Of a DNA stretch of 64,000 bases, positions 41,770 through 63,860 are shown one piece after another. The notes below the pieces were generated by a model. The model did no database searches and had not been told where the DNA came from. It worked only from the letters and a program-made list of their open reading frames with translations. How positions within the stretch are numbered: position 1 is the stretch's first letter; every line of letters begins with the position of its first letter. Made by a program: the position numbers and the translations under genes. The stretch lies in contig OY740802.1 in NCBI GenBank assembly GCA_963514005.1, positions 27,590,001 through 27,654,000 on the forward strand. Reading direction: 5' to 3'. The stretch is from Raja brachyura. Taxonomy: Eukaryota.

Positions 41770-42067
41770 TCACGACGGACGGGCCGGCGGACGGGCGGGT
41801 CACGTGTCCTCACCGCCAAGCCCCGCCCCTTCCTTCTGACTTTGCAGCGCGGTCGCCATGGCAACCCGTAGCTTCAACCCGCCGCCCCCCTCCCCGCCAG
41901 CCAGGCGCGCCCAGTGGCTGGAGCGGCTGTCAATCACCAGCAGGCGGAGAGAAGGCGGGCTCTTTGCGCCGCCGCAGGGTCTGGAGGGCAAAGTGGCGCT
42001 GAACGCGGGCGGCGGGAGCGAGGCCGGCACGGCCACCGGCAGCAGCAGCGGCGGCGGCGGCAGCAGG
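41770..42067 (+). promoter_or_regulatory. GSS CpG-island promoter/5' UTR: E-box GTCACGTG (41799), GC box (41821), RFX X-box GTCGCCATGGCAAC (41852-41865), CTGTCAATCA (41927)
   Basis: Very GC/CpG-rich; motifs read directly; followed by a consensus donor GAG|GTAAGT at 42166/42167. Confidence 0.7.
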
Positions 42068-42166
42068 ATGCACAGCCGCGTGCACAGCCTGATACACAGC
42101 CAGGTACACAGCCGGGTACAGAGCCGGTTGCCCAGCCTCAGCGTGCCCAAGCGCACCGAGAGTGAG
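42068..42166 (+). CDS. GSS: GSS exon 1, putative coding part (MHSRVHSLIHSQVHSRVQSRLPSLSVPKRTESE); the frame is also open from ATG 41858
   Basis: Strong phase-0 donor in frame with exon 2, which has no ATG at its N-terminal end. Which start codon is used is inferred. Confidence 0.6.
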
Positions 42167-43734
42167 GTAAGTGTCTGCCACTGCACCCATCCTTACTTAC
42201 TTACTTACACCCCTAATAGTTAAAAGTGCCCACAAAGGCGAGATTTGCTAGAGAAGGTCAGATGTCGAGGTGGAAGAGTGAGGGGGAAAGTAACTGTCAG
42301 TGTTTAGGCCCTGCTTCAGAGACAGGGAATCTCTCTGGCGAAGGTACACAGGGCCCACAGGCCAGTTCCTGCCCAGTGCAAGGTTCAACCTGGTACCTCC
42401 AGCCGAGATTGTCACAATGCCAACCTCTCAATGCATGCGATTGCTGTTAAAACAACTGTCAGTATTAATCGCAGTAACTCAGTCCATTACTTCCCCCCCC
42501 CCCCCCCCCGATGATTTATGTTTTTAATTCCGTATTACTATACTTGTTTGGAATTTCCTGTTTAAATAAGCAACGCAGAAGCAATTCAGAGGAAATGGTC
42601 CAAAGTTAATTTTTCTTCAAGCCAGCGAGTTATTTAAATATATAGGACGGAACTGCAGATACTGATTCACACCGAAGTTCTGGAGTAATTTAGCGGGTCA
42701 GGCAGCATCTGTGGAGGAAAAGGTGACGTTTCGAGTCGAGACCCTTCTTCAGACTGAGTGTCAGGGGAAAGGGAAAAGGACAAAGGGACAAGGACAAAGG
42801 ACATTTATTATCACATACACCAATTGGTGTAGGGAAATTTGACTTGTCATTGCAGCACACAAATAAAGATAAGACACAACGTCAAGAGTTTCACAGTAAG
42901 CATAAAAACATCCCCCCACAATGGTTTCCACTTTGGGGGAAGGCATCAAAAGTCCAGTCCCTGTCCTCTGTTCACCCATAAAGGTTCAACCTATTCCTAT
43001 TCTACCAGAGATGCTGCCTGACCTGCCGAGTTACTCCAGTATTTTGTGTCTATCATAGATATTTAAATACATGTTTAAGAAGCCAGAGAGATTATAATTC
43101 CACTCCAGCCTTAATGTGTAATAGGGGGGTTGCACATAAGGTCAAAGGGCGTGATGCACGGAGTATCTCAATCCTTCTGGAGTACATGGCAGCTTCCGGC
43201 ATACGCTAGTAACTCACGAAACACGTACGATCTTACCTGTTAAAAACCTCCAAAATGGTCAATTTTTGCACTGTAAAAATTTGTGGAAATGGGGGTAACC
43301 GTGAGAGAAATCCACCAAAATCACTGCTGCTCACTGACTTGCGAAAGAGCAGTGTGCCAGCGGTTTGAGGGCAAATCTCGGCCCACAACAGCCCGGGGCT
43401 GGAGGGTGACTGAGCGCTCAAGTCACCTGAGCACCAAGATGTAAGCGGCCGAAGGAGCGGATTCCTCGGGACAGCCCCCACTCTCTTCCCGGGGTTAGCG
43501 CTGTCCGGCCACGGCCGCCCTCCACTCCGTCTCCCCCTGTGTGGCCGCACTGTGACGGGCTGTGGGTCGGAGGCGCGCACACACACGGTGCTGGGTGGAA
43601 TGGGGCCTCGGCTCCAGGCAGCGGACACACGGAGCCATAAACCTGGCAACGTCAGCTGCAGCAGAGTTGGGGCCAGTCTGGTCCCTCTGCCCAACCAGAG
43701 TCGCTGACCGTACTGCACCGACACCGGACACCGA

Positions 43735-44130
43735 CCCCCACACCGGGGCGATTCACCTACCCAACCCCCGGACCCCGACCCACACATGACACACGGGGTG
43801 ATTATCCTCCTCCCAGACCCCCACCACCACAAGGGGTGATTCAGACCCCCGACCTCTGGACCCCCACCACCACAGGGGGTGATTCACCCCCCCCCCCCCA
43901 GGACCCCCACCACTACACGGGGTGATTCGACCCCCAGATCCCGACCCACACACGAGGTGATTCACGATATCCCCACGACCTCCACCACCACATGGGGTGA
44001 TTCACGACCCTCTCCGGACCCCCACCACCACACGGGGTGATTCAGCCCCCGGACCCCGGCCCACGCATGGGGTGATTGTTTCCCTGACACCCACAACCGG
44101 GTGATTCGCCTCCCCCGACCCCCACATGGG
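43735..44130. repeat. GC-rich minisatellite, ~35-38-bp unit (cacacggggtgattca...ggacccccaccac), about 10 copies
   Basis: ggggtgatt recurs at regular spacing. Confidence 0.85.
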
Positions 44131-47100
44131 CGACAGATGGCCCGGGATCCACGTGTGTGGAACCAGTCAGCGTGGAGTGCGGATGCTGTCTGTAAAGAGT
44201 TTGCACATTCTCCTTGTGAACGCGAGGGTTTTCTCTGGGTGCTCCGGTTTCCTTCCATATTCCAAAGGCGTGCAGATTTGTAGGTTAATTGACTTCAGTA
44301 AAATTGCCATTATGGCATGTGTATGGGATGATTGTTGATCTGTACAGACTTGATAGGCCGAAGGGCCTGTTTCCACACTGTATCTTTAAACTAAACTAAG
44401 ATAGGGTAGACAGTCGGAACCATTTTCCCAGGTTGGAGAAATCAAATACCAGAGGGCATAGGTTTAAGGTAAAAGTGGCAATGTTTGAAGGAGATGTGGG
44501 GGTTTTTTACACAGAGGGTGGTGACTACCTGGAACACACTGCCAGGAGGCAGATGCGGTAGTGGCATTTAAGACACTTTTGGATAGGCAGATGCAGGGGA
44601 TGGAGGGCTATGGATTATGCAGAGGTACATGCCCTCTATAATGTTTATTTGCTCTGTACTCCACAATTTGAGGTTCGTAATAGAAAAAAATGACGTGGTT
44701 AAAGTAGACATTGTCAGATTTTAATAAAGGTAATTTTTATACTTTTTGGTTTCACCATGTAGAAATTACAGCAGTGCTTATACATAGCCCCCCCAAACCA
44801 AATTAGGCTGCTGGCGATATGGATGCCAAGGACCATCTCCCCAGCAGCTCTGTTGAGAAGGACACAGGTTGTGCTTTCTTATGTCAGCAACAAACTTTTT
44901 TGTCTTGCTGACTCTGGATGCATTACTCTGGGAATCCCCTTGCAAGACTACAGCTGCATTCTTCCCACCACCCTGATAGAAGTATATAAAATGATTAGAA
45001 GCTTGGTAGGGTAGACAGTCTGATCCTTTTATTTTCCCCAGGGTGGAAATGTCAAAGAATAGCATTGAGGTGTGAGAGGCAATGTTTAAAGGAGATGTGC
45101 TGAGCAATTTTTGTTCCATAGTCGGTGTCTGGAACATGTTTCCAGTGGTAGAGGTGGAGGCAGATACAGAGGTGGTGTTTAAGAGACTTTTGGATAGCGA
45201 TATGGATCATGTGACAGTAGAGGCATTATGTTCAGCATGGACGTTGGGGGCCAAAGGGCCTTTCCTGTGTTGTGTTATTCCTGTATGTTCTCAAAGTTGT
45301 ATCAAAGCTTTTGTACTTTTATGCACCATATCACTTGTTGTCAAGGTCCTCTTTGTTTCATACTTTCTGACATAAGGGATCCTATTCATTCTGTACTTTT
45401 GCATATGTGGGCAAGCCCTAGCATGTGAGGTCTGATGCAATCGAATGGAATTTCAGAACACACATACTTATGTTCTGCAAGACGTCCGAAAGTTGAAGGA
45501 CTGGAGAGGAAAGGGACAGCTCGCTGATGAACCATATGAAGGGGGGAGACCGCTGGGCTGCCGAGAACAAAGAGGAACCTGGGGGGGGGGGGTGGGGGGG
45601 GGGGGTGGGGGGGGGTGGGGGGGGGGTGGGGGGGGTGACTGTGACAATAAAGCATGTGACAATAAGGCACATGTGACAATAGAGCATCATTGAATTTGCC
45701 TATACTGTTGTCACCCATCAGGGCAATGTAGACTAATGCATATCAGCAATATCATAGATAGAGATGTGGATACTAGGAACTGCAGATGCTGCTTTACAAC
45801 AAAAGACACAACGTGCTGGAGTAATAGCGGATCAGACAGCATCTCTGAAGATGGAAGTGCTAGCAATCCTAGTTTATTGAAGGGCCATTCAGGAACATCA
45901 TACCAGAGGGGAAGTTTGAATTGACCCTTTTAGTGTCATTTTAACTAATTCTTTGGCAAGATCTTAATTTTCTTTCACTTATTTGCAAATGTCTGTCTTT
46001 CTCTGACCCATTCCAGAACATCCGGAGAAAATCCACTTGGTCACACAGAGAAAGTACAAACTCTGTACAGACAGCGCCCGTGATCAGTAATAAACCTGGG
46101 TCTCTGGCGCTGTAAGGCAGCAACGCTACTGCTGCACTATTGTGTCGCCCTAGAAAAGGTTGTAGGGGTTGGCCTGGCGATGATATTGGTGTCTTCCACT
46201 GCTGCTCTTTGTTGATGTAGGTTGTGTCTGATCTGTGCACTCGTTTGATCTCTGGGGGTTCTCTCGGTAATGTCTGGTTCATGAGAAAACCTCTCTTGGG
46301 GTTAACCACAACATGCAGGCTAGAGAAATAGCAGCCTTTTGTACCCTTGGGATGTGTTCCCACTAACCATCTTTCGGGTTGTTACCTGCTGCTTATTGCG
46401 AGCATTTTCTGCCTTTAGTCTCAAAGGTGTGGCATCTGCAGCTCTCCACTCGCTTTCTGCAAAGTCATGGTGAGTTTCTGGCTCGGCTATGCTGCACTGT
46501 GAAGCTCACACTGAGTGCATATGTTCAGACTCCTCTTTTGTGTGATTGCTCTGAAGGACTTTAGAGATACAGCATGGAAACGTGTCCTTCGGCCCACCAG
46601 GTCTGCGCCAACCAGCGATCACCCTGCACACTATCCCTATCCTACACACTAGGGACAATTTAACCATTTTTATCAAAGCCAATTAGCTTGCAAATCTACA
46701 CATCTTTGGAATGTGGGAGGAAACCAGCACAGCCGGAGAAAACCCACGCTGCCACAAGGAGAATGTGCAAACTCGGTTCTGGCAGCAGTCACAGTCAGGA
46801 TTGAACTTGGGTCTCTGGTGCTGCGTGGCAGCAACTCTACTATTTTGCCCCTAATTGTCATCTAAAGAGGGCTGTATAGGAAGGAACTGTAGATGCTGGT
46901 TTACACTGAAGATAGGCACAACATGCTGGAGTAACTCAGCGGGACAGGCAGCATCACGGGATAGAAGGAATGGGTGATGCTTTGGGTCGAGACCCTTCTT
47001 CAGACTAGAAGAGGGGTTTTGACCCGAAACGTCACGCATTCCTTCTATCCAGTGATGTTGCCTATCCCGCTGAGTTACTCCAGCATTTTGTGTCTATCAA

Positions 47101-47324
47101 AAGAGAGCTGTAGTTCTTTAGTTTCAGAAGATGTTAATGAAGATGCAATCTAGTTTCAATAGATCTTGAGTCAGGTCGAGTTTACTACCATATGCATGAG
47201 CATGGTGAGGTACAGGTGCAATGACGATCTTGCGTCCAGCAGCATCACCGATGCAGAATCGAGCTAACCCAGCAAAAACATTACAGTAAACCCTTGTTGT
47301 AATGGATTTTCACTGCCGACACCA

Positions 47325-47820
47325 CGTTGAAGAGGGTCCAGATGGAATTTACGAGAATGATCCCAGGAATGGTTGGGTTAACATATGAGGAGCGTTTGAC
47401 AATTCTGGGCCTGTAGTTGCTGGCCTTTAGAAGGATAAGGGGGGACTTAATCGAAACTTACCGAATAGTGAAAGGCCTGGATAGAGTGGATGTGGATAGT
47501 ATGTTTCGACTAATGGGAGAGTCTAGGACCAAAGGCCATAGCCTCAAATTAAAAGGACATAACTTTTTGAAAGGAGATGAAGAGGAATTTCTTTAGTCAG
47601 AGGATGGTGAATCTGTGGAATTCACAGATTGGCTGCAGAGGCCATCAATGGATATTTTTAAGGCGGAGATTGACAGATTGTTGATTAATAAGGATGTCAG
47701 GGGTTATAGGGAGAAGGCAGGAGAATAAATTTGGGAGAGAAAGATAGATCTGCCACGATTGAATGGCTGAGTAGACTTGATGGTCCGAATGGCCAAATTC
47801 AGCTCCTTTAACTTGTGAAC
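47325..47820 (+). mobile_element. CR1 3' fragment
   Basis: FTRMIPG..YEERL..LGL..; ggagagtctaggacc motif. Confidence 0.85.
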
Positions 47821-48552
47821 ATATGAAGGTAAAAATATCTCCAAAAGGGCCTTGGTAATCACATCCCTTGCTTCCCTTAGCATCCTAGAATAGACCCAGT
47901 CAGGCCAAAGGGACATGTCAATTCTAGTGCATGCTAATATCTCTGACATTCCTTCTTTCCCTAACGTGCTCCAGAATATTCTGAGTTCCCCTCCATTTAC
48001 TCACCTGCCTCTAACACTCTTGCTCTCTGGTGAACACTGATGGGAAGTTTTAACTTGGGGTTTTGCTCATATCACTTGGCTCCATGCAAAGATTATTATT
48101 TTGGTTATTAATTCCTTCGCTACCCTCTTCTAATATACTTATAAAAGGGTCATAAAGTGAAAGAATAACTCAGTGGGTCAGGCAACATCTCTGGAAAAAA
48201 TGGATAGGTGACATTTTTGGTCGGGGCCCTTCTTCAGAAGAAACAACCCACAGGGAAGAGTTGGTCGCAGATGGCAACAAGCATTGAGTGACGTAATCCA
48301 AAAAGTTCCATGTTCACCAGAGATGCTGCCTGACCTGCTGGGTTACTCCAGTACTTTCTGTCTCTTTTTGGAAACCAGCATATGTAGTTCCTTGTGTCTC
48401 TACTTATAAAAGATGATGGGATTCTCCTGAATCCTACTTGCCAGTGTAATTTCGTGGCCACTTTTAGCTCTGCTTATTTCTTAAAATCTCTCAATTTCTG
48501 CTTTAAATTGCAGAGGACTCATTCAATGTTTAAATTTCAAATGTGCATCATG

Positions 48553-49687
48553 CGGAGCTGCCAAGTAGTACGGATTTTCCGTATTTTCTACATAAATGCG
48601 ATAAGAATATGGTTTTGAGTTGTCAAATATGGATTTTTTGGAAGTCCCAACTTCTTGTTTCATTGCCATGCCACTCGCCAATGGAGGGGTGGTGGCCCAG
48701 TGGGGTTGACTTAGGGTGTTGCTGCTTGGAAAATGCAGGGATATGGGGGGTCATGCTATACCTCTGTGGGTGCCACCTGGCCCGCTGAGTTCCTCCAGAA
48801 ATCTGTGTTTTTTGCTTTGCTCTGGAGTTGTAGGTGGACACGGGGGGCTGGAGTGGCTCAGCGGGACGGGCGACGGCTCTGGGTGTGGGTGGCGTTTCGG
48901 GTGGAGACCCTTCTTCAGACAATCACAAGTACTCTCACCGACGAGAGTTCAGTTCAGTCTGAAAAAGGGTCTCGACCCAAAACGTCACCCATTCCTTCTC
49001 TCCAGAGATGCTGCCTCACCCGCTGAGTTACGCCAGCTTTTTGTCTATCTTCAATTTCAGAGTTAAATAAAAAAACAGAGTGCTGGAGGAACTCAGCGGG
49101 CTAGGCAGCACCTGTGGGGGAATGGATTAGGAATTGTTTTGGGCCAGGGTTCTTCTTCAATAGGAAGGAACCGCAGATCAGGCATGATATTCTTCCGATT
49201 TAAATCCCATTTGTTTTCCTATTTGTCCATTTTTAGTGCCTGATTATTTGGCAGCCAATCAACTGCCGTCTCTAAGGGGGTTGCATCCAATCACCGACCA
49301 GCTTCCCTTGACATTCCCGTCCAATCAGTCTCCTCCATCCAATCAGCCGCTGTCTCCAAGGGCATTGTATTTAATCACATAATGCGCTTGTCACTCGGCG
49401 GCCAATCAGATGCAATCTCCGAGGGGCGTTGCGACCAATCACCGACTAGCTTCCCTTACTGAAGCAGACGATGGCAGCAGCCAACACAGAGAGAGAGCGA
49501 GAGAAGCAAGAAAGCAGCTATGACATATAACACAGAATAAACTGTTTTACAAATACACAACAAACAAGTTATGCAATTTTATAAATTCAGCAACGTGGCC
49601 CCGCGTAAAAGTACTGATTTCCTCAGCAAAATACTGATTTTCAGGTACTAGAATACTGAAATGCTGTGGCAAAACATGGCAGCTCTG
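48553..49687. mobile_element. hAT-like non-autonomous element with 6-bp TSD ATCATG, containing a CCAAT cluster and Penelope-end insertions
   Basis: cggagctgccaagt ... acatggcagctctg; atcatg at 48547-48552 and 49688-49693. Confidence 0.7.
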
Positions 49688-49942
49688 ATCATGTGCACCT
49701 TTCGCTTCCTTGGTCCTTTCTAAACTAAGTTTCCCCAAACTTGCCATTTCACCTCTTGCCCATGGCAGGAACTCTGAACTACAGATTAGGAACTGCACCC
49801 CCACTTATCCAATGTTGTTTTCTCTTTTGCAGCTGCTCCCAAGGTATTTTTGGCAGCTCATTTTCTACACTGTAGAAATCTGCATATACTGGGCCCTTGG
49901 GCCCTTTCATGAATAGGAACAGGAATACTTTATTGTCACATT

Positions 49943-52510
49943 CAACTTTTTTTCCCGGTTGCCAGCCGGGCAACCTTGGCAGCTTTTTAGGTTGCCAAAT
50001 GACAGTTTAGGTGGTCATTTAAGACGGTTTGCATGACACGTACGATAATGTGCTCGGACTAAGTGCGTAGTTACCAGTTGGAATTATGCTCAATGAAGCA
50101 GTCACATGTTATTTCTGCTTCAAAGTCACAAACTAAACATGTTCACCAATCAAGACCTGATATATACCACAATGACATGCAGCAAAATTATAATACAATA
50201 TCGCAACTCTTTTTACACATTGCAATTAATTCAATTTCTATTAGTTCTTTTCACTTTCAAACAAAAATGTGGTTGGATTATTCAGCGTATGATCAACCTG
50301 TGTCAATAAATCCTGGACCATGGTCACATATATGCTTAACCATGCACACTACAGATTGATGCAAGCATGTTTTCTGTGAAGGACTGAAAATTACCATGAC
50401 ATAGGTGTAGCATGGGTCATTATTGCTATTGGTACATAAACACTCTCGCTTCCCACATAATCTATCCATAACAAAATATACAGGTTGCAAGGAAATTTCT
50501 AAAGGCATTTTATGATAATAGCTGTTAAATCCAACTATACCCATCTGACAGGTTAAACATTACACTAATTGACAAGAGATGGCCAAAGGACATAACTGCA
50601 GCATATGTTCTTTTGGTAATATGTTTAAAGGTGTCAATACGCCACATTACCGGACATTCAGATTAGATGTACGTGTTGTGAACAGCAAAGGAGATACCCA
50701 GTTTGTACGCACCAGATTTAAAACAAATTATTGATAAACGCTGTTTCCATCATTCCGACTTCAGAATTAACGTTAAAATTTCAACTGAAATGTCTCATGA
50801 CCAAATTTGTGATGTATATCACCGACTGTAGAAGTAAAACCTGGATAAATTGTATAGTTGTACGTATAGTTGTGAATGTTGCTCATTAAATAACTATGGT
50901 ACTGATACTTCATATTAAGAGCATTGATTTGCCGTTAAAATGAATTCTGTAATAATGTGTCAATGGTAGCAGTGACAATCGAACACTGCGGTTTTAACGT
51001 TTCACGTGTTCACAATTTAATTAATCCATGTTTATGGACTAAAACAAATAATAACATTGGGAATTAAAACACATTTGATTGCATTCCATTATCAAACATA
51101 GTCAGTGTTCGCTCTGAAGACATTTCCAGCACAATAGGATCGGGGGGGGGGGGGGGTGAATCGGTGCGGGATGGCTTAGGTGGCGGGGGGGGGGGGGGGG
51201 GGGGGTGGTTGAGAAGGCAATCGGTGCGGGATGGATGGATTGAGGCAGGTGAATTAGTATGTGTTGGTTGGAGTATGTAAAATTGTGAGGGAAGAGCACT
51301 GGGGATGTCAGTGGTGTTAAATGGGGAGATCAGTATGGGATGGATAGGGGGGGGGGGGGTCAGTACAGTGTGAACCGGAGGGTCTGTGCAGGATGAATCA
51401 GGGGATCACTACAGGATGAATCAGGGGATCAGTACAGAATGAATGGGGGGGTATCAGTACAGGATGAATGGGGGGGATTCAGTAAAAGATGAATGAGGAG
51501 ATCAGCACAGGATGAATGAGGGGAACAGTATTGGATGAATGGGAGATCAGTACAAGATGAATGAGAGGATCAGTACAGGATGAATGGGTGGATCAGTAAA
51601 AGATGAATTGGGAGATCAGGATCGATGGGGGGATCGGTGCAGGGTAAATGGAGAGTGGGTCAGTACGGGATGAATAGGGGGAGATCAGTGCAGGATGAAT
51701 GGGTGGTGGCAGGAGAATCAATGCGAGGTGGATAGGGTGATCAGCGCAGGATGAATAGATGGGGAGGAGACCACGGGGATGTCAGTGAGGACTGAATAGA
51801 GGCAGGAATGGGGATCAGTGCGGGATGCAGAAAAGGGGTCTCAGGATAAGGGGGGAGGGGTGGATGGGGCGTACAAGGGAGGGGGGGGAAGGGGCAGAGG
51901 AGGTGGGGAGGAAGGAAGGTCAGCGCTCCTCGGACAACATTTCCCGGCTACCTTGGCCGTCCCTGTCCACCGCCAAGTGCCGTCGTCAAAGGGATCTCCT
52001 CGCCACCACCTCCCCTCCTCCACCAGCCAACAGCAAGGTGCGGGGCCGAGCGGTGCAGCTCAAAGATCCTATAGCTATAGGATCTTTCGTGCAGCTGCTT
52101 CAGACGGCGGAAGGAGCCCTCCCTCCTCCCGGTCTTGGCGTGCAAGAGGGTTTGTTTTGAAAGTGGTTATCGCCGTTAGTGGATTTGCAAACAGTGGCCG
52201 CTATCAGGGCGGGCGAGGTACGGGAGGAGGAGGCGGTGGGGCCGCTGCTGCCACTGTGCGGGGCCCGTCATTCGCTCCGACCCTTTGTCACCACACACCT
52301 AATATCTTTGCCACGCACAACAGCCATTGCCAACATGAAATGTCATGTTCCTTTTCTCCAGAGAAGCTGCCTGACCCGCTGAGTTACTCCAGTTTTTTGT
52401 GTCTATGTTCAGTATAAACCAGTACCGGGCAAAATGACTCGCCCTTTAGGTTGCCCAGCGGCACTTTGGGTGGTCATTGGCACTCGGGCAACCGCTAATT
52501 TCGAGCCCTG
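49943..52510. mobile_element. hAT-like non-autonomous element with only the right terminus intact (...aatttcgagccctg)
   Basis: Repeated ggttgcc/gggcaacc subterminal motifs at both ends; CAGGGCTCGAAATT-type terminus at 52510; contains a minisatellite. Confidence 0.6.
51300..51830. repeat. Minisatellite, ~22-bp unit (gggggatcagtacaggatgaat), about 20 copies
   Basis: atcagtacaggatgaat is repeated in tandem. Confidence 0.9.
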
Positions 52511-53740
52511 ACATTTGACTAGGCACAGTGAGATTATTTGCCTGCATACACAATGTATGCAAATAGCAGCCACCTACGGCGCTGACAAAGTTACAAAGCA
52601 TGCCGGGTCCCCGTTGTCCATTGTTCTCCTCTCAGTTCCCTCATGGAGGCCCCCCACTTTGGGTCCTCCATTTTTCTTCCCCCTCCCTCACGGCGGTCCT
52701 CCACGCTCCCATCGACCATCGACTATGTGTCGAGCCACGAGGCCTTGCCGACGCCATGAGGCTTCACCACCACGGAGACCCCAGCGTCGCAAAGCTTTAT
52801 GTCCGCAGTTGCCGCTACCGAGGTCTCACCGCTGTCGACACCCCACTTCACCCCACCGTGAAATGGGGCGCCACACGATTCGCTGCCCCGCCAACAGTCT
52901 GTCTGTTTTTTTGTCTTTTTTTAAATGTTTAATGTGTGTTAAAAGTCTGTAAATGTTCTCCGGTTTGTTTTATGTGGGGGGAGGGAGTGGGGGAGACCGT
53001 AATCAGGATCTGTGAGGCAGCAGCTCCACCGCTGCGCCACTGTGCTGCCCCGTCAGAGAGGAAATGTGACCAACACTTGGTCAGAGTTGTGCAGAATCAT
53101 ATTCCTGGATAAATTCATTTTGTTTCGTTTATTGCCACATGTATCGAGGTACAGTGAAAAGTTTTTGTTACATGCTAACCAGTCAGCGGAAAGAAAATGT
53201 ATTGATTACAATTAAGCCATCCGCAGTGTACAGATACATGATAAAGGGAATAACATTTAAGGCAAGATAAACTCCAGTAAAGTCTGATTAAAGATAGTCT
53301 GAGGGACTCCAATGAGGTAGGTAGTAGCCCAGGACTGTTCTCCATTTGTTAGTAGGAGCGTTCAGTTGCCTGATAACAGCGGGGAAGAAACTGTCCCTGA
53401 ATATGGAGGTATGCGTTTTCACACTTCTGCACCTCTTGTCAGAGGGGAGAAAGGTGAATGTCCGGGGTGCGACTCGTCGTTGATTATGCTGGTGGCCTTG
53501 CCGAAGCAGTGTGAAGTATAGATGGAGTCAATTGAAGTGAGTTTGGTTTGCCTGATGGTCTGGGCAGCATCCACAATTCCCAGCAATTTCTTACGGTCTT
53601 AGATGGAGCTGATCCTGAACCATGCTGTCATGTATCCCGATTAAATAGATTTGGCAGAGGTGGCGGTGGGAATATGAAAGGAGCAATAATTCTGATATCT
53701 AGGTGTATATTAGCTTTAAGCTTCCTCTGTTGTTCCACAG

Positions 53741-53875
53741 ATTTTGATCCCAGTTGTACCAGATGAAGTTCTACTGAACAGTAATCTCATCCAGCACCTA
53801 GCACTTAATGCCAAAGATGCAGCTCTCCTTTATGGCGTGCTTATGAGGACCAAAGAAGATCCAAATTCCAGTGAG
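53741..53875 (+). CDS. GSS: GSS exon 2 (ILIPVVPDEVLLNSNLIQHLALNAKDAALLYGVLMRTKEDPNSSE)
   Basis: ttccacag/gtcagt boundaries; 135 nt; aligns to the GSS N-terminus (A.D.AL..GVL.RT...P.SSE). Confidence 0.93.
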
Positions 53876-55348: not shown

Positions 55349-55494
55349 ACAATCAACTATGCTCCCTTCACCCTGTTCCCATCGCCGGTACCAACAAGTC
55401 TCTTCAACCAGGCATTTGAGGTCCAGCAAGATTTCAACTTGCTGGTTGATAAAATCAGCATGGATTCCGAATTTCTGAAAAATTCGTTAGCTAG
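55349..55494 (+). CDS. GSS: GSS exon 3 (TINYAPFTLFPSPVPTSLFNQAFEVQQDFNLLVDKISMDSEFLKNSLAS)
   Basis: ttctag/gtaaga boundaries; 146 nt; YAPFTLFPS motif. Confidence 0.97.
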
Positions 55495-55928
55495 GTAAGA
55501 TTCGAGCATTGTGACTCACAGATGACCCCCACGACCTCTTTCCACCATCCCCACCTATCTACTCACTGTAAATGGCACGATTGTAATCATGTATTATCTT
55601 TCCACTGACTGGATAGCACACAACATAAGCTTTTCACTATACCTCAGTACATGTGACAATAAACTAAACTGAACTATCACTTACCAGGTTTTGTTCCAAC
55701 CCTCTTTTTCAGTGCCCTCCGCCTTCTACTATCAGTCTGAGGAAGGGTCCCAACCTGAAATGTCACCTATCCATTCTCTCCACAGATGCTGTCTGACTCG
55801 CTGAGTTCTCCAGTACTTTTTTTTTTCTGCTCAAGATTCCAGATCTGCAGTTTCTTGTGCCTCTCTTTGTTTTGTTTGTTTAACTACTGCAATCCTATCG
55901 AATATGTTTTCTTTGCTGTCACTTCTAG

Positions 55929-56004
55929 CACAGCAGAAGCTGATGAATTTACAGCTCGCCTGTTCAACATCTACACTCAGGTGCTTGATGAAGGCATTGC
56001 CCAG
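55929..56004 (+). CDS. GSS: GSS exon 4 (TAEADEFTARLFNIYTQVLDEGIAQ)
   Basis: ttctag/gtaatt boundaries; 76 nt; D.FTARLF motif. Confidence 0.96.
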
Positions 56005-56039
56005 GTAATTGATTGTGCTTTGTACTGTTAAATTCATGT

Positions 56040-56565
56040 TCTAGGTGCAGAATTAGGCCATTTGGCCTTCTCCGCCTTTATAAGCATGGCTAATAATCAT
56101 GACTAAATAATCTTTCTCTTTTCCCTTCCCCTTCCTTCTCCCCATAACCCTTGACACCCATACTTATCAAGAATCTGTCCATCTCCACGTTAAAATGATC
56201 CATCGACTTGGCCTCCACAGCCGTTTATGGCTATGAACTCCACAGATTTACCACCCTCTGACTAAAACAAGTTCTTCCTCATTTCCTTTCTAAAGGTGCG
56301 CCCTTTTATTTTGAGGCTATGGCCTCTGGTCCTAGATTCTCCCTCTAATGGAAACATCCTATCCGCATCCACTCTATCCAGGCCTTGCACTATTTGGTAA
56401 GTTTCAATGAGGTTCCCGCTCATTCTTCTAAACTCCAGTGAGTACAGGCCCAGTGCCATCAAACACTCATCCTATGTTAACCCAATCACCCCTGGGATTA
56501 TTTCTTGTAAACCTCCTCTGGACCCTCTCCCATACTAGCACATCCTTCCTCAGATATGGGGCCCA
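56040..56565 (-). mobile_element. CR1 3' fragment
   Basis: LGLYSLEFRRMSGNLIETY...MFPLEGESRTRGHSL. Confidence 0.88.
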
Positions 56566-56813
56566 AAGCATTACTGGATTAAAGTTCAGTTCCCACCGTA
56601 TGAAGTGCTGCCCGTGATCATGACAAGGTGGAAGAACAGTTCAGTTCTCTCAATTCTCAAAGAACTTAATTTGATTTCTGAAATAATGACCACTTTCTTA
56701 AATCTTACACACCGGGAAATGAGGTCTGGAAATGTATTGCATGGAAAGTGCTTGACCTCTTGCTTTTGTGTAAACTAAAGTCTGATCTTTTTTTATTCAT
56801 TTCCCTTGTTCAG

Positions 56814-56953
56814 TCTATTACGCTGGGAGTGAACAGGTCAGATTACATGTTTGACAAAAGACCCAAGCTGACTGCTACTTTGAAACAGGTTGAGATTAAC
56901 ACCATTGCTGCCAGTTTTGCAGGATTGGCTGCCAGAGTCCCAGAAGTGCATCG
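56814..56953 (+). CDS. GSS: GSS exon 5 (SITLGVNRSDYMFDKRPKLTATLKQVEINTIAASFAGLAARVPEVHR)
   Basis: gttcag/gtaagt boundaries; 140 nt; catalytic RSDY and EINT motifs. Confidence 0.97.
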
Positions 56954-58573
56954 GTAAGTCCACATGGATGACTTCTGCCTGTTTAATTGATGTTGGTCTT
57001 CCCTTTTGTGTCCGGGCTCACTGTTTCCTCCCCGCTTGCATCCATCCTGGAACTCACCGCTCATAACAACTTGAGCATGGATGGACATGGTGCCTCTTAC
57101 AAGCTCAGTAGAGTAATTCTGTACAATTTGCTAATTGGAGATGTGCTTGGGTAGGGCCATGCTCTACTGGACTGTTTCTAAGTTTCCAAGAAAATAATTT
57201 TACTGTGCATTTACACTTTGCGCATATGACAATAAAAGCTCCATTGAGCTATGCTTCAATACCGTGGATATTTCCACCAGTAGGAGAATCTAACACCGGA
57301 GGAATAACAGCCTCGGACACAGCTTTAGAATGGAGATGAGGAAGAATTCCTTTAGCTAGAGGGTGGTGAATCGGTGGATTTCATTGCCACAGAGGGTTTT
57401 TCTTTGGAGATACAGTGTGGAAACAGAGTGTGACAGGAAACCAGACCAGCCAGAAGAAACCCACACAGTTGCAGGGAGAATGTTCAAACTCTGTACCGAC
57501 AGCACCTGTAATCAGGATCGATCCCGGATCTCTGGTGCTATAAGGTGGCAGCTCTACTGCTGTAGAGGCCATGTCATTGGGTATTTTTCAAACAGAAATT
57601 GATACGTTCTTTATTAGTAGGGATGTCAAAGGTTATGGGGAGAAGGTAGGAGAATGGGGTTGAGATGGGGGAATAATAGATTGGCTGTGATTGAATGCCA
57701 GAGCAGACTTGATGGGCTGAATGGCGTAATTCTGTTGCAATGTCTTATGATCTAATACCTGGATCTTTCTGTTGAAAAGCACTTTGCAGAATTCATGATT
57801 TGGCTTCAACAAGATCCCAAACCACCCTAGCAGTGGTCAGACTGGAAGGTGTGGCCTGGGCTGTTTACTGTTTGGTTGTGCAGTGGCACAGCTAGTAGAG
57901 TCTCCAGCTTCCCGGCTTCGCCCCTGACCTTGGGTGCTGTCTCTCTGGAGCTCCTGTGATCTACCTGTGATCATGTAGGTTTTCTCCTGGTGCTCTGGTT
58001 TTCTCCCCCATCTCAAAGATGTGCAGGGTTGGTATATTACCTGGCCCTCTGCAAATTGGCCCTAGTGTGTATGTTAGTGGCTGAATGTGGCTGGAGTTGA
58101 TGTGCATGGAATAGATCGGGATTAGAATAGGATTGACGTAAATGGTCAGTGTGGACCCATGTAGATCCAAAGGACCTGTCACATGGCTGTTTGTCTTTGC
58201 AATTTACTTTAGAGATGCCATGCAGAACCAGCCCACCGAGTCTGTGCTAACCAGCAATTCCTATACACTAGCACTATCCTGCACACTACGGACAATTTAC
58301 AATGTTTATCAAAGCCAATTAACCTCAAACTGTCGTCTTTGGAGTGTGGGAGGAAACCCACACGATCACGTGGAGAACAGAAACTCCTTACAAACAACGG
58401 CCATAGTCATGATCGAACCCGGATCTCTGGCGTTGTAAGGCAGCAACACTGCCGCTGTGCCACCGTGCCACCCCCCTTCCCTCCCCCATTGTGTTGCCTC
58501 TGAAAGATTTGTGTTCATAAACAAGATTTTTGCATCCTTTTAACACTGTGCTAGCTAATGTTATGTGTACTTA

Positions 58574-58844
58574 CAGTGCCCTCCATAATGTTTGGGTCAA
58601 AGACATTTACATGACATTGCTGTGTCCCAAACATTATGGTGCCCTGAAATGGAGGGACCATGGATAAATACTGCTGTACTTTCTACAGAGTGAAACCAAA
58701 ATGTGTAAAAATGGCCTTTATTAAAATCTGACAATGTGCACTTTAACCACATGTGATATTTTCTATTACTAATCTCAAATTGTGGAGCAGAGAGGCAAAT
58801 AAATAAATGATGGGTCTTTGTCCCAAACATTATGGTGGGCACTG
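58574..58844. mobile_element. Tc1/mariner-type MITE; a partial related copy lies at ~44628-44790
   Basis: TIRs cagtgccctccataatgtttggg / cccaaacattatggtgggcactg, flanked by TA. Confidence 0.9.
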
Positions 58845-58895
58845 TATGCTTTTAAAGACATAAGCAGTGTCTATATATTTCTAATTTTCACGTAG

Positions 58896-59012
58896 GCATG
58901 TAATGAATGTCTGGGGAAAACCTGATGAAGCGGCAAAGATCCTGAGTAACAAAGCAGTGAAAGGAATTTGCAAAGGCATCGCAAGAGCCTGGCACTTGTA
59001 TGGGTCGCCAGA
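58896..59012 (+). CDS. GSS: GSS exon 6 ([38 protein letters not shown])
   Basis: cacgtag/gtaagt boundaries; 117 nt; GIA.AW.LYGS motif. Confidence 0.96.
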
Positions 59013-59569
59013 GTAAGTACTATTCAACAGCAAATGAAAATAAAAAGAACTGTAGATGCTGTGTAATCTGACCTAAAATTCTCAACAGTTCAGGCAGCAT
59101 CTGTGCCTTTAGACTTGAGATACAGTATGGAAACAGTCCCTTTGTACCACCAAGTCAGCATGAACCAGCGATCACCTATGCATACATGACAATGAAAACC
59201 CATTGAAGCCCGTACTCCAGCACTGCCCTATGCACACAGAACAATTTACAATTTTACCAAAGCTAATTAATCTACAAACCTGTATGTGTGTGGGAGGAAA
59301 CCGGAGCACCCAGTGAAAACCCACGTAATCACAGGGAGAACGTACAAACTCAATGTACAGGCAGCATCCATAGTCAGGATTGAACCTGGGTCACTGGCGC
59401 TGTAAGGCAGCAGCTCTACCACTGTGCCACCCTTTAGGGCAATGCTATACAAATTCCAGGTGAAGGACCCTTGATCCGTATAAGAGATTTAAATGCACCA
59501 GTCAAACTTGTAACCTGTCTTTTACTACAATTGTGTGCGCAGAGGCCACACAAGTTCACAAGTTTTCGG

Positions 59570-60075
59570 AGTAGAATTGGGGCATTCAGTAAATGGAGTC
59601 CATTCTGCCATACAGTCATGGTGGATCTCTGCCTCCTAATCCCATTTTGCTGCCTTCTCCCCATAACCCTTGACACTTGTTCTAATCAAGGATTTGTCTA
59701 TCCCTGCCTTAAAAATACCCACTGACTTGGCCTCCACAGCCCTCTGTGGCAATGAGTTCCACAGATTAACTACCCTCTGAGTAAAGAAGTTCTTCCTCGC
59801 CTCCTTTCTAAAAGTGCGCCCTTTAATCAGGAGAGTTCTAGACTCTCCCAAACATCCTTTCCACATCCACTCTATCTATGTCTTTCATTATTCTGTAAGT
59901 TTCAATGAGGTCCCCCCTCACCTTCTAAACTCCAGTGAGTAGAGGTCCAGTGCTGTCAAACACTCATCATATGCACTAATTCCTGGAATCATTCTTGTAA
60001 ATCTCCTCTGGCCCCTCTCCAGAGCCAGCCCATCCTTCCTTAGAAATGGGGCCCACATTTGCTCACAGTACTCGA
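59570..60075 (-). mobile_element. CR1 3' fragment; another copy lies on the plus strand at ~60810-61230
   Basis: FEYCEQMWAPFLRKD...NFFTQRVVNLWNSLPQ. Confidence 0.88.
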
Positions 60076-60406
60076 AATGTGAGTGCATTGTCCACACACA
60101 ATGGTGATAAAAAAATAACAAGTATTTAATAATCCTATAGTTAAATAAATACCATATAACTTGATCACGACAAGTCGGCTGCCATAGCTCTAGTTCCCTC
60201 TTCAGATCCCATTTTCAATTTAAAAACCTGTGGATTGGCTAGTGCAAGTCGTTTAATACAGATAATTTTGTTTTCCGTAACGGTACGCGCTGGTGTTACT
60301 CAAAGTTACTCGATGTGTAGCATCCCATGAGCTGTTGTATGCATACTGACACCCATTTGTCTACAAAAAAGCACTGTGTAATGCTAACCTTTTGTGTTGA
60401 TTACAG

Positions 60407-60487
60407 CGCAGTGGTTCTCTTCCTGGTTGAGAAGATCTCGAGGAATATATTTGACCAGCGTTGCTTGGAAATGGAGCTTTGGAAAAA
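60407..60487 (+). CDS. GSS: GSS exon 7 (AVVLFLVEKISRNIFDQRCLEMELWK)
   Basis: ttacag/gtatgt boundaries; 81 nt; RNIFDQR motif. Confidence 0.96.
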
Positions 60488-62076
60488 GTATGTGTCCGTG
60501 AGGTTGAAGTGTCGGTTCATCTATTTTTTTAAAATTAAAATTGTACTCGTTGTATTACACAGCCATCATGAGATAAAGGACCTGATCTTGTGCTGCATTG
60601 TTCTATGTGTAGCTATGGACATGTTTCATGCTGCTAATGTCCTGTACCATCATAGATTTGAAAGGAGTGTCTCAACCCGTAACATCACCTATCCATGTTG
60701 TCCTGAGATACCCCCTGACCCGCTGATTGCTCCAACACACTGTTGTTTTTCTTTGGTAAACCGTCTTGAATTTCCTTGTTTTTACGGTGTCCTGCACACT
60801 CCTCACATTCATTTGATGGCCTGTACTTGATGGAGTTTAGAAGGATGAAGGGAGACCTCATTGAAACTTAGTGAATAATGAAGGGCCTGGTTAGAGTGGA
60901 TGTGGAGAGAATGTTTCCACTAGTGGGAGAGTCTAGGACCGGAGGGCACAGCCTCAGAATATAAGGATGTATGTTTAGAAAGGTGATGAGGAAGAATTTC
61001 TATAGACAGAGGGTGATGAATCTGAAATGCATTGCCACAGACAGCTGTTGATGCCATTCGGTATTTCTAAGGTAAGATTAACAGATTCTTGATTAGTAAG
61101 GGTGTCAAGTGTTATGGGGAGAACGTAGGAGAATGGGGTTGAGAGGGAAAGCTAGAACAGCCATGATTGAATGGCGGAGTAGACTCAATCGGTTAAATTA
61201 CCAAATTCTGCTTCTATGATTTATGAACTCCAAATAAAACTAAATTAATCTGCTGATTACTATCTGCATGTAATATTTACCCCTCCGTTCCCTACATGTT
61301 CAGATGCCTACCTAAAGCCTCCTAAATGCCACTCTTGTATCTGTTTGCACCACCACCCCTGGCAGCATATTCTAGGCACCTACAATTTTATGTAAACTTT
61401 AGTTTTGTTTATTATTGTACAGTGAAAAGCTGTTGTTTGCGTGCTATCCAGTCAAAGAAAAGACGATACACGAGTACAATCAAGCCGTCCACGGTGTACA
61501 GATAAAGGGTATACTGTTTAGTGCAAGATATAGTCTGATTAAATATGGTTTAAAAGTCTCCAAGGAGGTGTGATAGGAAGTCTGGACCGCTCTCCAGCTG
61601 GTGAGAGGACAGTTCAGTTGCCCGACAACAGCAGGGGAAGAAACTGTCCCTGAACCTGTCGGAATGTGTATTCGAACTTCTGTACCTCTTGCCTGATGGG
61701 AGAGGGGAGAAGAGGAAGCGCCTGGGGTGAGACTGGTTCTTGATTATGTTGGTGGACTTGCTGAGGCAGCATGAACAAACTTGTCTTGCGCATCTCCTTT
61801 TAAACTTTCTCCCTCTGACCTTAAAGCTATGCCCTTAGTATTTGACATTTCCAATGTGGGGAATGAAATGTTCTGACTCTCTACCCTATCTCATGCTCTT
61901 ATAATTTTATGCAGTGAATGTGTTTTGGGGCCGAGTGCTTTTGGGGTTAAGCACTATCAGTCCACTAATGGCCTGATAACCAAAGAGATAGACAGGTCTG
62001 GCAACTTTTAAAGCATGGGAAAATAATTAAACGTAAATTCAGCCCTAACACCGCATGAGTCTCTGGTTTCATTTTA

Positions 62077-63690
62077 ACCATATAACCATATAACAATTGG
62101 AGCACGGAACAGGCCTTCTCGGCCCTTCCAGTCCGTGCCGACCATTTATTTTCCCCTAGTCCCATCTACCTGCACTCAGACCATACCCCTCCATTTCCTT
62201 CCCGTCCATATACCTATCTACTTTACTTTTAAATGTTAAAATCGATCCTGCCTCCACCACTTCTGCAGGAAGATCATTCCACACAGCCACCACTCTCTGA
62301 GTAAAGAAGTTCCCCCTCATGTTACCCCTAAACTTCTGTCCCTTAATTCTCATGTCATGCCCTCTTGTTTGAATCTTTCCTACCCTCAATGGGAAAAGCT
62401 TATCCACGTCAACTCTGTCCATCCCTTTCATCATTTTAAAGACCTCAATCAAGTCCCCCCCCCCTTAACCTTCTACGCTCCAAAGAATAAAGACCTAACT
62501 TGTTCAACCTTTCTCTGTAACTTAGTTCCTGGAACCCAGGCAACATTCTAGTAAATCTCCTCTGTACTCTCTCTATTTTGTTGACATCCTTCCTATAATT
62601 AGGCGACCAAAATTGTACACCATACTCCAGAATTGGTCTCACCAATGCCTTGTACAATTTTAACATTACTTCCCTACTATATTCAATGCTCTGATTTATA
62701 AAAGCCAGCACACCAAAAGCTTTTTTTACCACCCTATCTACATGCGATTCCACCTTCAGGGAACTATGCACAGTTATTCCTAGATCCCTCTGTTCCACAG
62801 CATTCCTCAGTTCCCTACCATTTACCATGTAGTCCTATTTTGATTTGCCCTGCCAAGATGGAGCACCTCACACTTATCAGCATTAAACTCCATCTGCCAT
62901 CTTTCAGCCCACTCTTCCAAATGGCCCAAATCTCTCTGTAGACTTTGAAAATCTACTTCATTATTCACAGCACCCCCTATCTTAGTATCATCTGCATACT
63001 TACTTATCCAATTTTCCACCCCATCATCTAGATCATTGATGTACATGACAAATAACAGTGGACCCAACACAGATCCCTGAGGCACCCCACTGGCCACCGG
63101 CCTCCAACCTGTTCCAGACAAACAGCTATCCACCATTACTTTCTGGTATCTCCCATTCAGCCACTGTTGAATCCATCTTGCTACTCCGCCATTAACACCC
63201 AAAGATTGAACCTTCTTAACCAACCTTCCATGGGGAACCTTGTCAAAGGCCTTACTGAAACCCATATAGACAACATCCACTGCTTTACGGTCATCAATTT
63301 CCCTAGTAACCTCTTCAAAAGATTCAAGAAGGTTTGTCAAACATGACCTTCCAGGCACAAATCCATGTTGACTGTTCTTGAACAGACCCTGTTTATCCAG
63401 ATGCTTATATATATTACCTCTAAGTATCCTTTCCATTAATTTGCCCACCACTGACGTCAAACTAACAGGTCTATAAATGCTAGGTTTATTCTTTGAACCC
63501 TTTTTAAACAATGGAACAACATGCGCAGTATGCCAATCCTCCGGCACTATTCCCGTTTCTAATGACATTTGAAATATTTCTGTCATAGCCCCTGCTATTT
63601 CAACACTAACTTCCCTCAATGTCCTAGGGAATATCCTGTCAGGACCTGGAGACTTATCCACTTTTATATTTTTCAAAATGTCAGTACTTC
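62077..63690 (-). mobile_element. CR1 LINE with a nearly complete RT domain (frameshifted)
   Basis: KSPGPD..YRPVSLTS..QHGF..KAFDKV..GVPQGSVLGP..YADD; short repeat tail (aaccatat). Confidence 0.95.
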
Positions 63691-63782
63691 CTCCTCTTTT
63701 TCTTGATAGTTCATTGCTTTGAGTGTTATTTTTCACTTATCTGCTGTTAAACAATTGACACTTTCATTATTTTTTGTGGCAG

Positions 63783-63860
63783 GAATGTGCAGGTGATAAG
63801 GAGGCAAATGTATGAAATATATCAGAGAGGGACCTTGGATGACAACAAAAAACTTTTTGT
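63783..63860 (+). CDS. GSS: GSS exon 8 (NVQVIRRQMYEIYQRGTLDDNKKLFV); the gene continues right of the window
   Basis: tggcag/gtgagt boundaries; 78 nt; VIRR...I...G.LD....LFV motif. Confidence 0.94.

Follow-up and report, generated by a model that had tools for sequence, protein, structure and literature searches.

Where does translation of glutathione synthetase (GSS) begin in a skate whose GSS exon 2 opens without a methionine codon, and what are the residues contributed by exon 1 for? The locus lies in a 64,000-nucleotide stretch of Raja brachyura DNA (the window, to whose first letter all positions refer unless stated otherwise). The 45 codons of exon 2 are 98% identical to a skate glutathione synthetase, and the codons at 53741-53875 also match residues 10-43 of human GSS. 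A tblastn search placed exon 1 at 42068-42166 and exons 2-8 within the window, with the remainder, up to window-relative position 74136, in adjoining stretches of the same genome. The 13 GSS coding stretches follow one another in the correct order, with zero stops in the aligned stretches of this copy (copy 1), and the exon matches are 77-97% identical to the Leucoraja protein. The Leucoraja ortholog aligns with human GSS (2hgs) over residues 10-473 (E=6.8e-173). By homology, the locus is predicted to encode a eukaryotic glutathione synthetase (PF03917/PF03199) with full-length ATP-grasp GSH synthase domains. Its features are as follows.

41793..42012, + strand: CpG-rich promoter-like region, CpG observed/expected 0.8-0.9, no TATA match (regex scan)
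41858..42166, + strand: 103-codon frame from an ATG in an X-box, likely not the translation start
41997..42166, + strand: GSS exon 1, 5' end approximate, phase-0 donor GAG/GTAAGT (contigs of a relative)
42068..42166, + strand: putative N-terminal tail of 33 codons from ATG 42068, with A at -3 (open frame; homologous elasmobranch tails)
42071..42127, + strand: 12-bp tandem repeat, 4.8 copies (repeat scan)
42125..42154, + strand: conserved motif RLPSLSVPKR (alignment of elasmobranch tails)
42167..53740, + strand: intron 1, 11,574 bp, rich in interspersed repeats (sequence)
53741..53875, + strand: GSS exon 2, 45 codons, candidate old starts ATT 53741 and ATC 53747, next in-frame ATG 53843
55349..63852, + strand: GSS exons 3-8, approximate limits (tblastn)

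In the intron before exon 8, the minus strand carries decayed reverse-transcriptase frames of 304 and 129 aa (62156-63736), which we take from their sequence to be LINE-like.

An earlier note on this DNA had proposed that GSS lost its start codon in exon 2 and gained a coding extension from exon 1, and its reading of the letters holds. Exon 2 opens ATT TTG ATC CCA at 53741; counting 43 codons back from SSE, which in the human protein ends at residue 43, lands on ATC 53747, and the next in-frame ATG (53843) is 32 codons downstream. Exon 1 ends in phase 0 at its donor GAG/GTAAGT (42166) and is open in frame from both ATG 42068 (33 aa) and ATG 41858 (103 aa), the first in-frame stop upstream lying at 41837. 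The junction 42166-53741 is present in the contigs of two out of two sequencing runs, which were taken as RNA by guess and represent two samples of one related skate from one study. These contigs, which skip two introns, depart from the genomic sequence at 42166 and run into the opening 30 bases of exon 2; over exon 2 they enter from the end of exon 1 and exit to exon 3, with the same ATT TTG ATC opening. Positions 42024-42073 were skipped as repeat, so ATG 42068 falls outside their reading. An assembly error at 53747 was considered and rejected through relatives, the contigs of the skate's own run leaving 53658-53809 uncovered; such an error is unlikely because the relative's contigs carry no differing letter at 53741-53779 and the GSS models of three other skates read ILIP at the exon-2 opening.

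The precise position of the lost start, which had been put at ATC 53747, is less certain. Codon 3 remains a candidate, and so does codon 1 (ATT 53741): the chimaera and the coelacanth have Met as the first codon of exon 2, and in three of the 11 sharks (Stegostoma, Rhincodon and Pristiophorus) Met occupies codon 3, aligned with ATC 53747.

We consider it very improbable that the main protein starts within exon 2 (at a near-cognate ATT, TTG or ATC, or at ATG 53843) or from another first exon, with the tail as a minor product. Speaking for it are 443-aa RefSeq forms of Rhinoraja and Chiloscyllium whose first residue is the GVLM Met, and an alternative first exon, 5 aa long, of Cetorhinus X2; however, ATG 42068 has A at -3 and precedes exon 2 on the spliced RNA, exon-2 codon 1 varies among I, L and V across elasmobranchs, and a start at 53843 would delete the first helix (H43-59 in the AlphaFold2 model). 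As a separate observation, the 5-aa first exons of Cetorhinus X2 and of the catshark GSS-like protein resemble each other (M-[HQ]-H-x-E), which suggests that sharks may possess an additional, short first exon. An exon of this form was sought in intron 1 and between the two GSS copies of the skate and was not found, and its absence from intron 1 also counts against another first exon. A scan of intron 1 (42167-53740) for AG/GT[AG]AG donors gave none inside it. Exon-2-skipping models of Amblyraja and Mobula fuse the tail directly to exon 3, both exons ending in phase 0. We also considered whether exon 1 arose as a copy of another sequence, and dropped the idea because exon 1 matches nothing in the genome except itself.

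The region ahead of exon 1 contains consensus matches only, comprising GC boxes at 41793, 41823, 41882 and 42007, an E-box at 41801, and the X-box GTCGCCATGGCAAC at 41852-41865. The motif assignments (RFX X-box, ARE-like, E-box, GC boxes) are to be taken as presumptive. ATG 41858 sits in the X-box and had been suspected of lying upstream of the transcript. We rejected it as the likely start through two observations: the contigs of the relative start at ~41997-41999, downstream of ATG 41858 and upstream of ATG 42068, and another skate record reads the X-box region in a frame other than that of the GSS tail. The 103-aa frame is therefore not conserved, whereas the contig beginnings near 41997 are only a hint on the transcription start site, because contigs cannot fix one. 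Besides, an ARE-like site TGACTTTGC (TGACnnnGC, 41837-41845) stands six bases ahead of the RFX X-box, with the E-box at 41801; NRF2 controls GSS, with which an ARE-like site would fit.

Human GSS exon 1 is non-coding, and the animal enzyme is generally regarded as constitutively cytosolic, with no regulatory tail. The suppositions that the extension is a novelty of this skate locus or a product of its repeat are not borne out: an exon-1 tail of 15-29 aa is present in 20/20 other elasmobranch GSS models (11 sharks and 9 batoids), and its conserved part lies after the repeat. The N-termini compared are annotation models, that is, predictions, with one main-copy model per species; shorter isoforms, partial records and two GSS-like paralogs were left out. 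At 33 aa the window tail is the longest of the 21. No Met is found at the exon-2 start in 17/20 models. Callorhinchus isoform X1 has a 15-aa tail plus Met at exon-2 codon 1, hence the chimaera keeps both starts; its tail is likely homologous to that of sharks, judging by position and a few shared residues.

Whereas elasmobranch GSS carries a 15-33 aa tail in which a motif is fixed, GSS of human and other bony vertebrates starts within ~33 residues of the GVLMR anchor. Among 108 non-chondrichthyan proteins (17 without the anchor were not counted), Met occurs within ~33 residues of GVLMR in 90/91 anchored ones: 77 start there, 13 are longer with Met kept there, and one lacks it. Since non-chondrichthyan proteins keep a Met near the anchor, we infer that the short form is ancestral and the tail derived. 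The Met counts support the proposal that exon 1 supplies the start, as a predicted start, together with a derived coding extension. The tail is predicted in sharks, skates and rays and appears absent from bony vertebrates. In an older Latimeria model the exon-2 Met is preceded by an acidic extension of 9 aa, which is unrelated to the shark tail. When the 33-aa tail was searched against 1.84 billion proteins, three matches were found, of which one is an exon-1 frame of a skate and the other two are repeat proteins with no relation to it; an ESM Atlas search with the tail gave no usable match.

These comparisons suggest a possible history. An in-frame AUG would have arisen in exon 1 of a chondrichthyan ancestor, leaving two starts, both of which persist in the chimaera; the tail would have become fixed in stem elasmobranchs as [RK]-L-P-[ST]-L-x-[LV]-P-[RK]-[RK]; the exon-2 AUG may then have lapsed in most lineages, by which the tail would become obligatory; and skates would later have extended it via the 12-bp repeat. 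With two starts in the chimaera, the second lost in most elasmobranchs, and repeat growth in skates, the series is unusually complete, and therefore offers a testable case of a leader sequence turned into constrained protein. The tail itself is already known as the annotated N-terminus of RefSeq elasmobranch GSS models (XP_032897692.1, XP_055508215.1, XP_048406553.1 and others), which are automatic predictions without functional comment, so what is new here is its breadth, motif and history. No paper on the elasmobranch GSS tail was found in the literature searched, a search to which most subscription journals were external.

Alignment of the tails revealed the pattern [RK]LP[ST]L.[LV]P[RKQ] in 19/21 elasmobranchs, including the window; it is missing in Narcine and Heterodontus and from the chimaera tail, and occurs in 0/107 further GSS proteins checked, 105 of them non-chondrichthyan. 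Its L, P, L and P columns are invariant in 17/17 gap-free rows, and the neighbouring columns swap only R/K, S/T, V/L and D/E across sharks and rays. Sharks and batoids are 59% identical in the final 16 residues of the tail, compared with 61% in the first 17 residues of exon 2 and 76% in the core. To judge selection, skate DNA was drifted neutrally to an assumed distance of d=0.3 and compared with 10 related sharks. The tail mismatches are conservative, with a mean BLOSUM62 score of +0.71 observed, compared with -0.60 when neutral drift is run to the same identity (P=0.015), and 29% of the trials at d=0.3 acquired a stop. With d=0.15, the P value for conservative mismatches is 0.058. The tail is apparently under selection at the protein level, a conclusion that is supported rather than proven, because the neutral distance was assumed and the 10 sharks are related.

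These data also bear on the proposal that the tail is a tolerated by-product, in which an upstream AUG rescued translation and the residues were kept for frame, solubility or a stable N-terminus with no partner. We regard this as unlikely. The tail length ranges from 15 to 33 aa, no known motif is matched strictly, and at a neutral distance of 0.3 or less the identity of the tail alone is unremarkable, all as would be expected of a passive extension. Set against them are the four invariant Leu/Pro columns and the restriction of changes to R/K, D/E and V/L swaps in both sharks and rays, in addition to the persistence of the tail in the three sharks that have Met at exon-2 codon 3.

The 33-aa window peptide had been described as built from the 12-bp repeat and as a possible mitochondrial targeting peptide. 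The repeat itself is real, but makes only the first ~16 residues. It is confined to skates and variable in copy number: tails are 17, 27 and 29 aa long in three skates, the contigs of the related skate have one more unit than the window, and the Rhinoraja tail is of the 17-aa shark type with no repeat. The absence of acidic residues from the first 30 positions was read correctly, the first acid being residue 31.

As a presequence, the tail has a suitable composition in the window, which is not found in relatives, so this part of the proposal is graded weak. It is unlikely, in our judgement, that the tail acts as a weak mitochondrial presequence giving a dual location in cytosol and mitochondria, strongest in the repeat-bearing skates, whose repeat brought in Arg, Ser and His and moved the first acid further from the N-terminus. 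The window tail carries a net charge of +5 over 30 aa with four Arg, close to the Rieske N-terminus of the same genome (+5, five Arg, first acid at 34), whereas the 20 relatives range from -2 to +2 over 30 aa, and sharks from -2 to 0. Low charge is no bar to import, because the GLUD1 N-terminus of the same genome is only +1. The ancestral 17-aa form, however, contains two invariant prolines, and in sharks an acidic residue occurs no later than residue 15; Pristis has Glu already at residue 5. A Tom20-like phi-x-x-phi-phi pattern is present in the window tail and in 6/22 rows altogether (background 0.17). Amphipathicity is not above that of shuffled sequences in 21/21 rows (lowest P 0.13; window P=0.75), a result that separates little because the hydrophobic-moment metric gave cytosolic GCLC a value of 7.2, no lower than those of true presequences. 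Among peptidase sites assessed by eye, R-2 is trivially present, and R-x-Y occurs only in the chimaera tail, at residues 5-7.

Functional presequences are acid- and proline-poor and without a consensus sequence, and a quarter of random 10-mers act as presequences in yeast, according to PMC13684279; the latter figure makes import easier to credit. In contrast to presequences so described, the tail keeps a consensus and two invariant Pro, and is thus neither proline-depleted nor free of fixed sequence. With only one start, moreover, complete import would leave the cytosol without GSS, and GCLC, the upstream enzyme, has no shared extension. In this respect 21 elasmobranch GCLC models were compared (15 from one 47-member cluster and six others), of which 15 start at the canonical Met, four have unrelated extensions and two are truncated; no extension is shared among them. 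In three elasmobranchs the GCLC X1 model carries an unrelated extension at its N-terminus, that of Amblyraja being 28 aa, Ser/Pro-rich and acid-free.

Dogfish glutamine synthetase is an elasmobranch enzyme whose presequence comes from an alternative (optional) exon. Its location in liver is reported to be mitochondrial (attributed to Casey and Anderson, 1982). The enzyme differs from the present case in being another enzyme, which serves urea synthesis, whereas the elasmobranch GSS tail belongs to a constitutive first exon. Arabidopsis GSH2 keeps a short cytosolic isoform. This glutathione-pathway enzyme resides in two compartments, plastid and cytosol, according to PMC9426629. Similarly, C. 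elegans GSR-1a/b occupies two compartments, and the 14 extra residues of GSR-1a are predicted to target mitochondria in PMC6429583; the two-AUG layout of the chimaera resembles this arrangement and speaks for a presequence. According to the same paper, GSR-1 keeps a short cytosolic isoform, whereas 17/20 elasmobranch GSS lack a second Met at the exon-2 start. The elasmobranch tail further differs from both GSH2 and GSR-1 in keeping a fixed proline-rich motif.

GSH synthesis is described as cytosolic, with mitochondria supplied by carrier import, in bioRxiv 10.1101/2021.09.15.460381. The broader proposal that cartilaginous fishes import GSS into mitochondria, the chimaera through its long form alongside a short one and skates through a tail made a presequence by repeat expansion, is in our view rather improbable. 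If true, it would mean that glutathione synthesis in animals is not confined to the cytosol, contrary to the rule, and would provide a natural example of its final step taking place within animal mitochondria.

The reading that we prefer, with a probability of about 0.5, is that elasmobranch GSS is a cytosolic enzyme bearing a regulatory tail for docking and phosphorylation. Exon 1 would supply the start codon and a disordered tail on an enzyme likely staying in the cytosol. In an AlphaFold2 model built from a 37-row alignment, pLDDT is ~30 for residues 1-30 and below 50 for residues 1-34, with an overall pTM of 0.85 and the remainder of the protein well folded; the tail is thus predicted to be disordered, and low pLDDT would be equally expected of a presequence. 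The fixed Leu/Pro spacing with basic flanks in a disordered tail resembles a short linear motif. The tail may bind a partner in extended form via the Leu and Pro positions, and the Ser of R-L-P-S may serve as a basophilic-kinase site; R-L-P-[ST], which we take to be a basophilic-kinase pattern, was read from the alignments in 19/21 elasmobranchs. With such a motif kept in sharks and rays alike, the GSS step would have, in one class of vertebrates, either a point of control or a signal for its location.

Among named partners, calcineurin fits best through L-x-[VL]-P, as a candidate at long odds. The loose calcineurin LxVP pattern, L.[ILV]P in bioRxiv 10.1101/632547, matches 19/21 elasmobranch tails against a shuffled background of 0.04, a count that amounts to about one event because the shuffle treats rows singly while rows share ancestry. 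The predicted disordered setting is likewise that of the docking motif. In the structure-based form (polar residue at -2, hydrophobic at -1, Val core, as outlined in PMC5156906) the motif is not found, since Pro stands at -2 in every motif-carrying row; Leu replaces Val in about half of the tails, and strict L.VP occurs in only 9/21. The calcineurin PxIxIT pattern, P[^PG][FILV][^PG][FILV][^PG], is found in 0/22 rows. Of the MAPK D-motifs (PMC4670726 Appendix Fig. S2), the JIP1, NFAT4 and MEF2A classes match 0 and the DCC class 1 of 22 rows, the single match being the window tail, where the repeat created it. EB1 SxIP, ankyrin PxLPxL, export-signal and PTS2 patterns were considered and dropped by eye.

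It seems quite improbable that the tail instead folds back onto the enzyme that carries it, or across the dimer, to tune activity. In favour, the conserved hydrophobic pattern adjoins the N-terminal helix, whereas the monomer model leaves residues 1-34 at pLDDT <50. When the tail was modelled against its own core dimer the score was 0.00, which speaks neither for nor against fold-back.

In addition, a tandem second GSS copy lies 14 kb beyond the end of the gene (27678193-27700768 of the contig, window-relative 88193-110768). It comprises exons 2-13 with the same ATT exon-2 opening, no exon-1 match, two in-exon stops and one frameshift. The matching Leucoraja paralog is annotated as intact with a different first exon; in the tree it is sister to the skate main copies (99/96), and the catshark GSS-like gene is a separate young duplicate.
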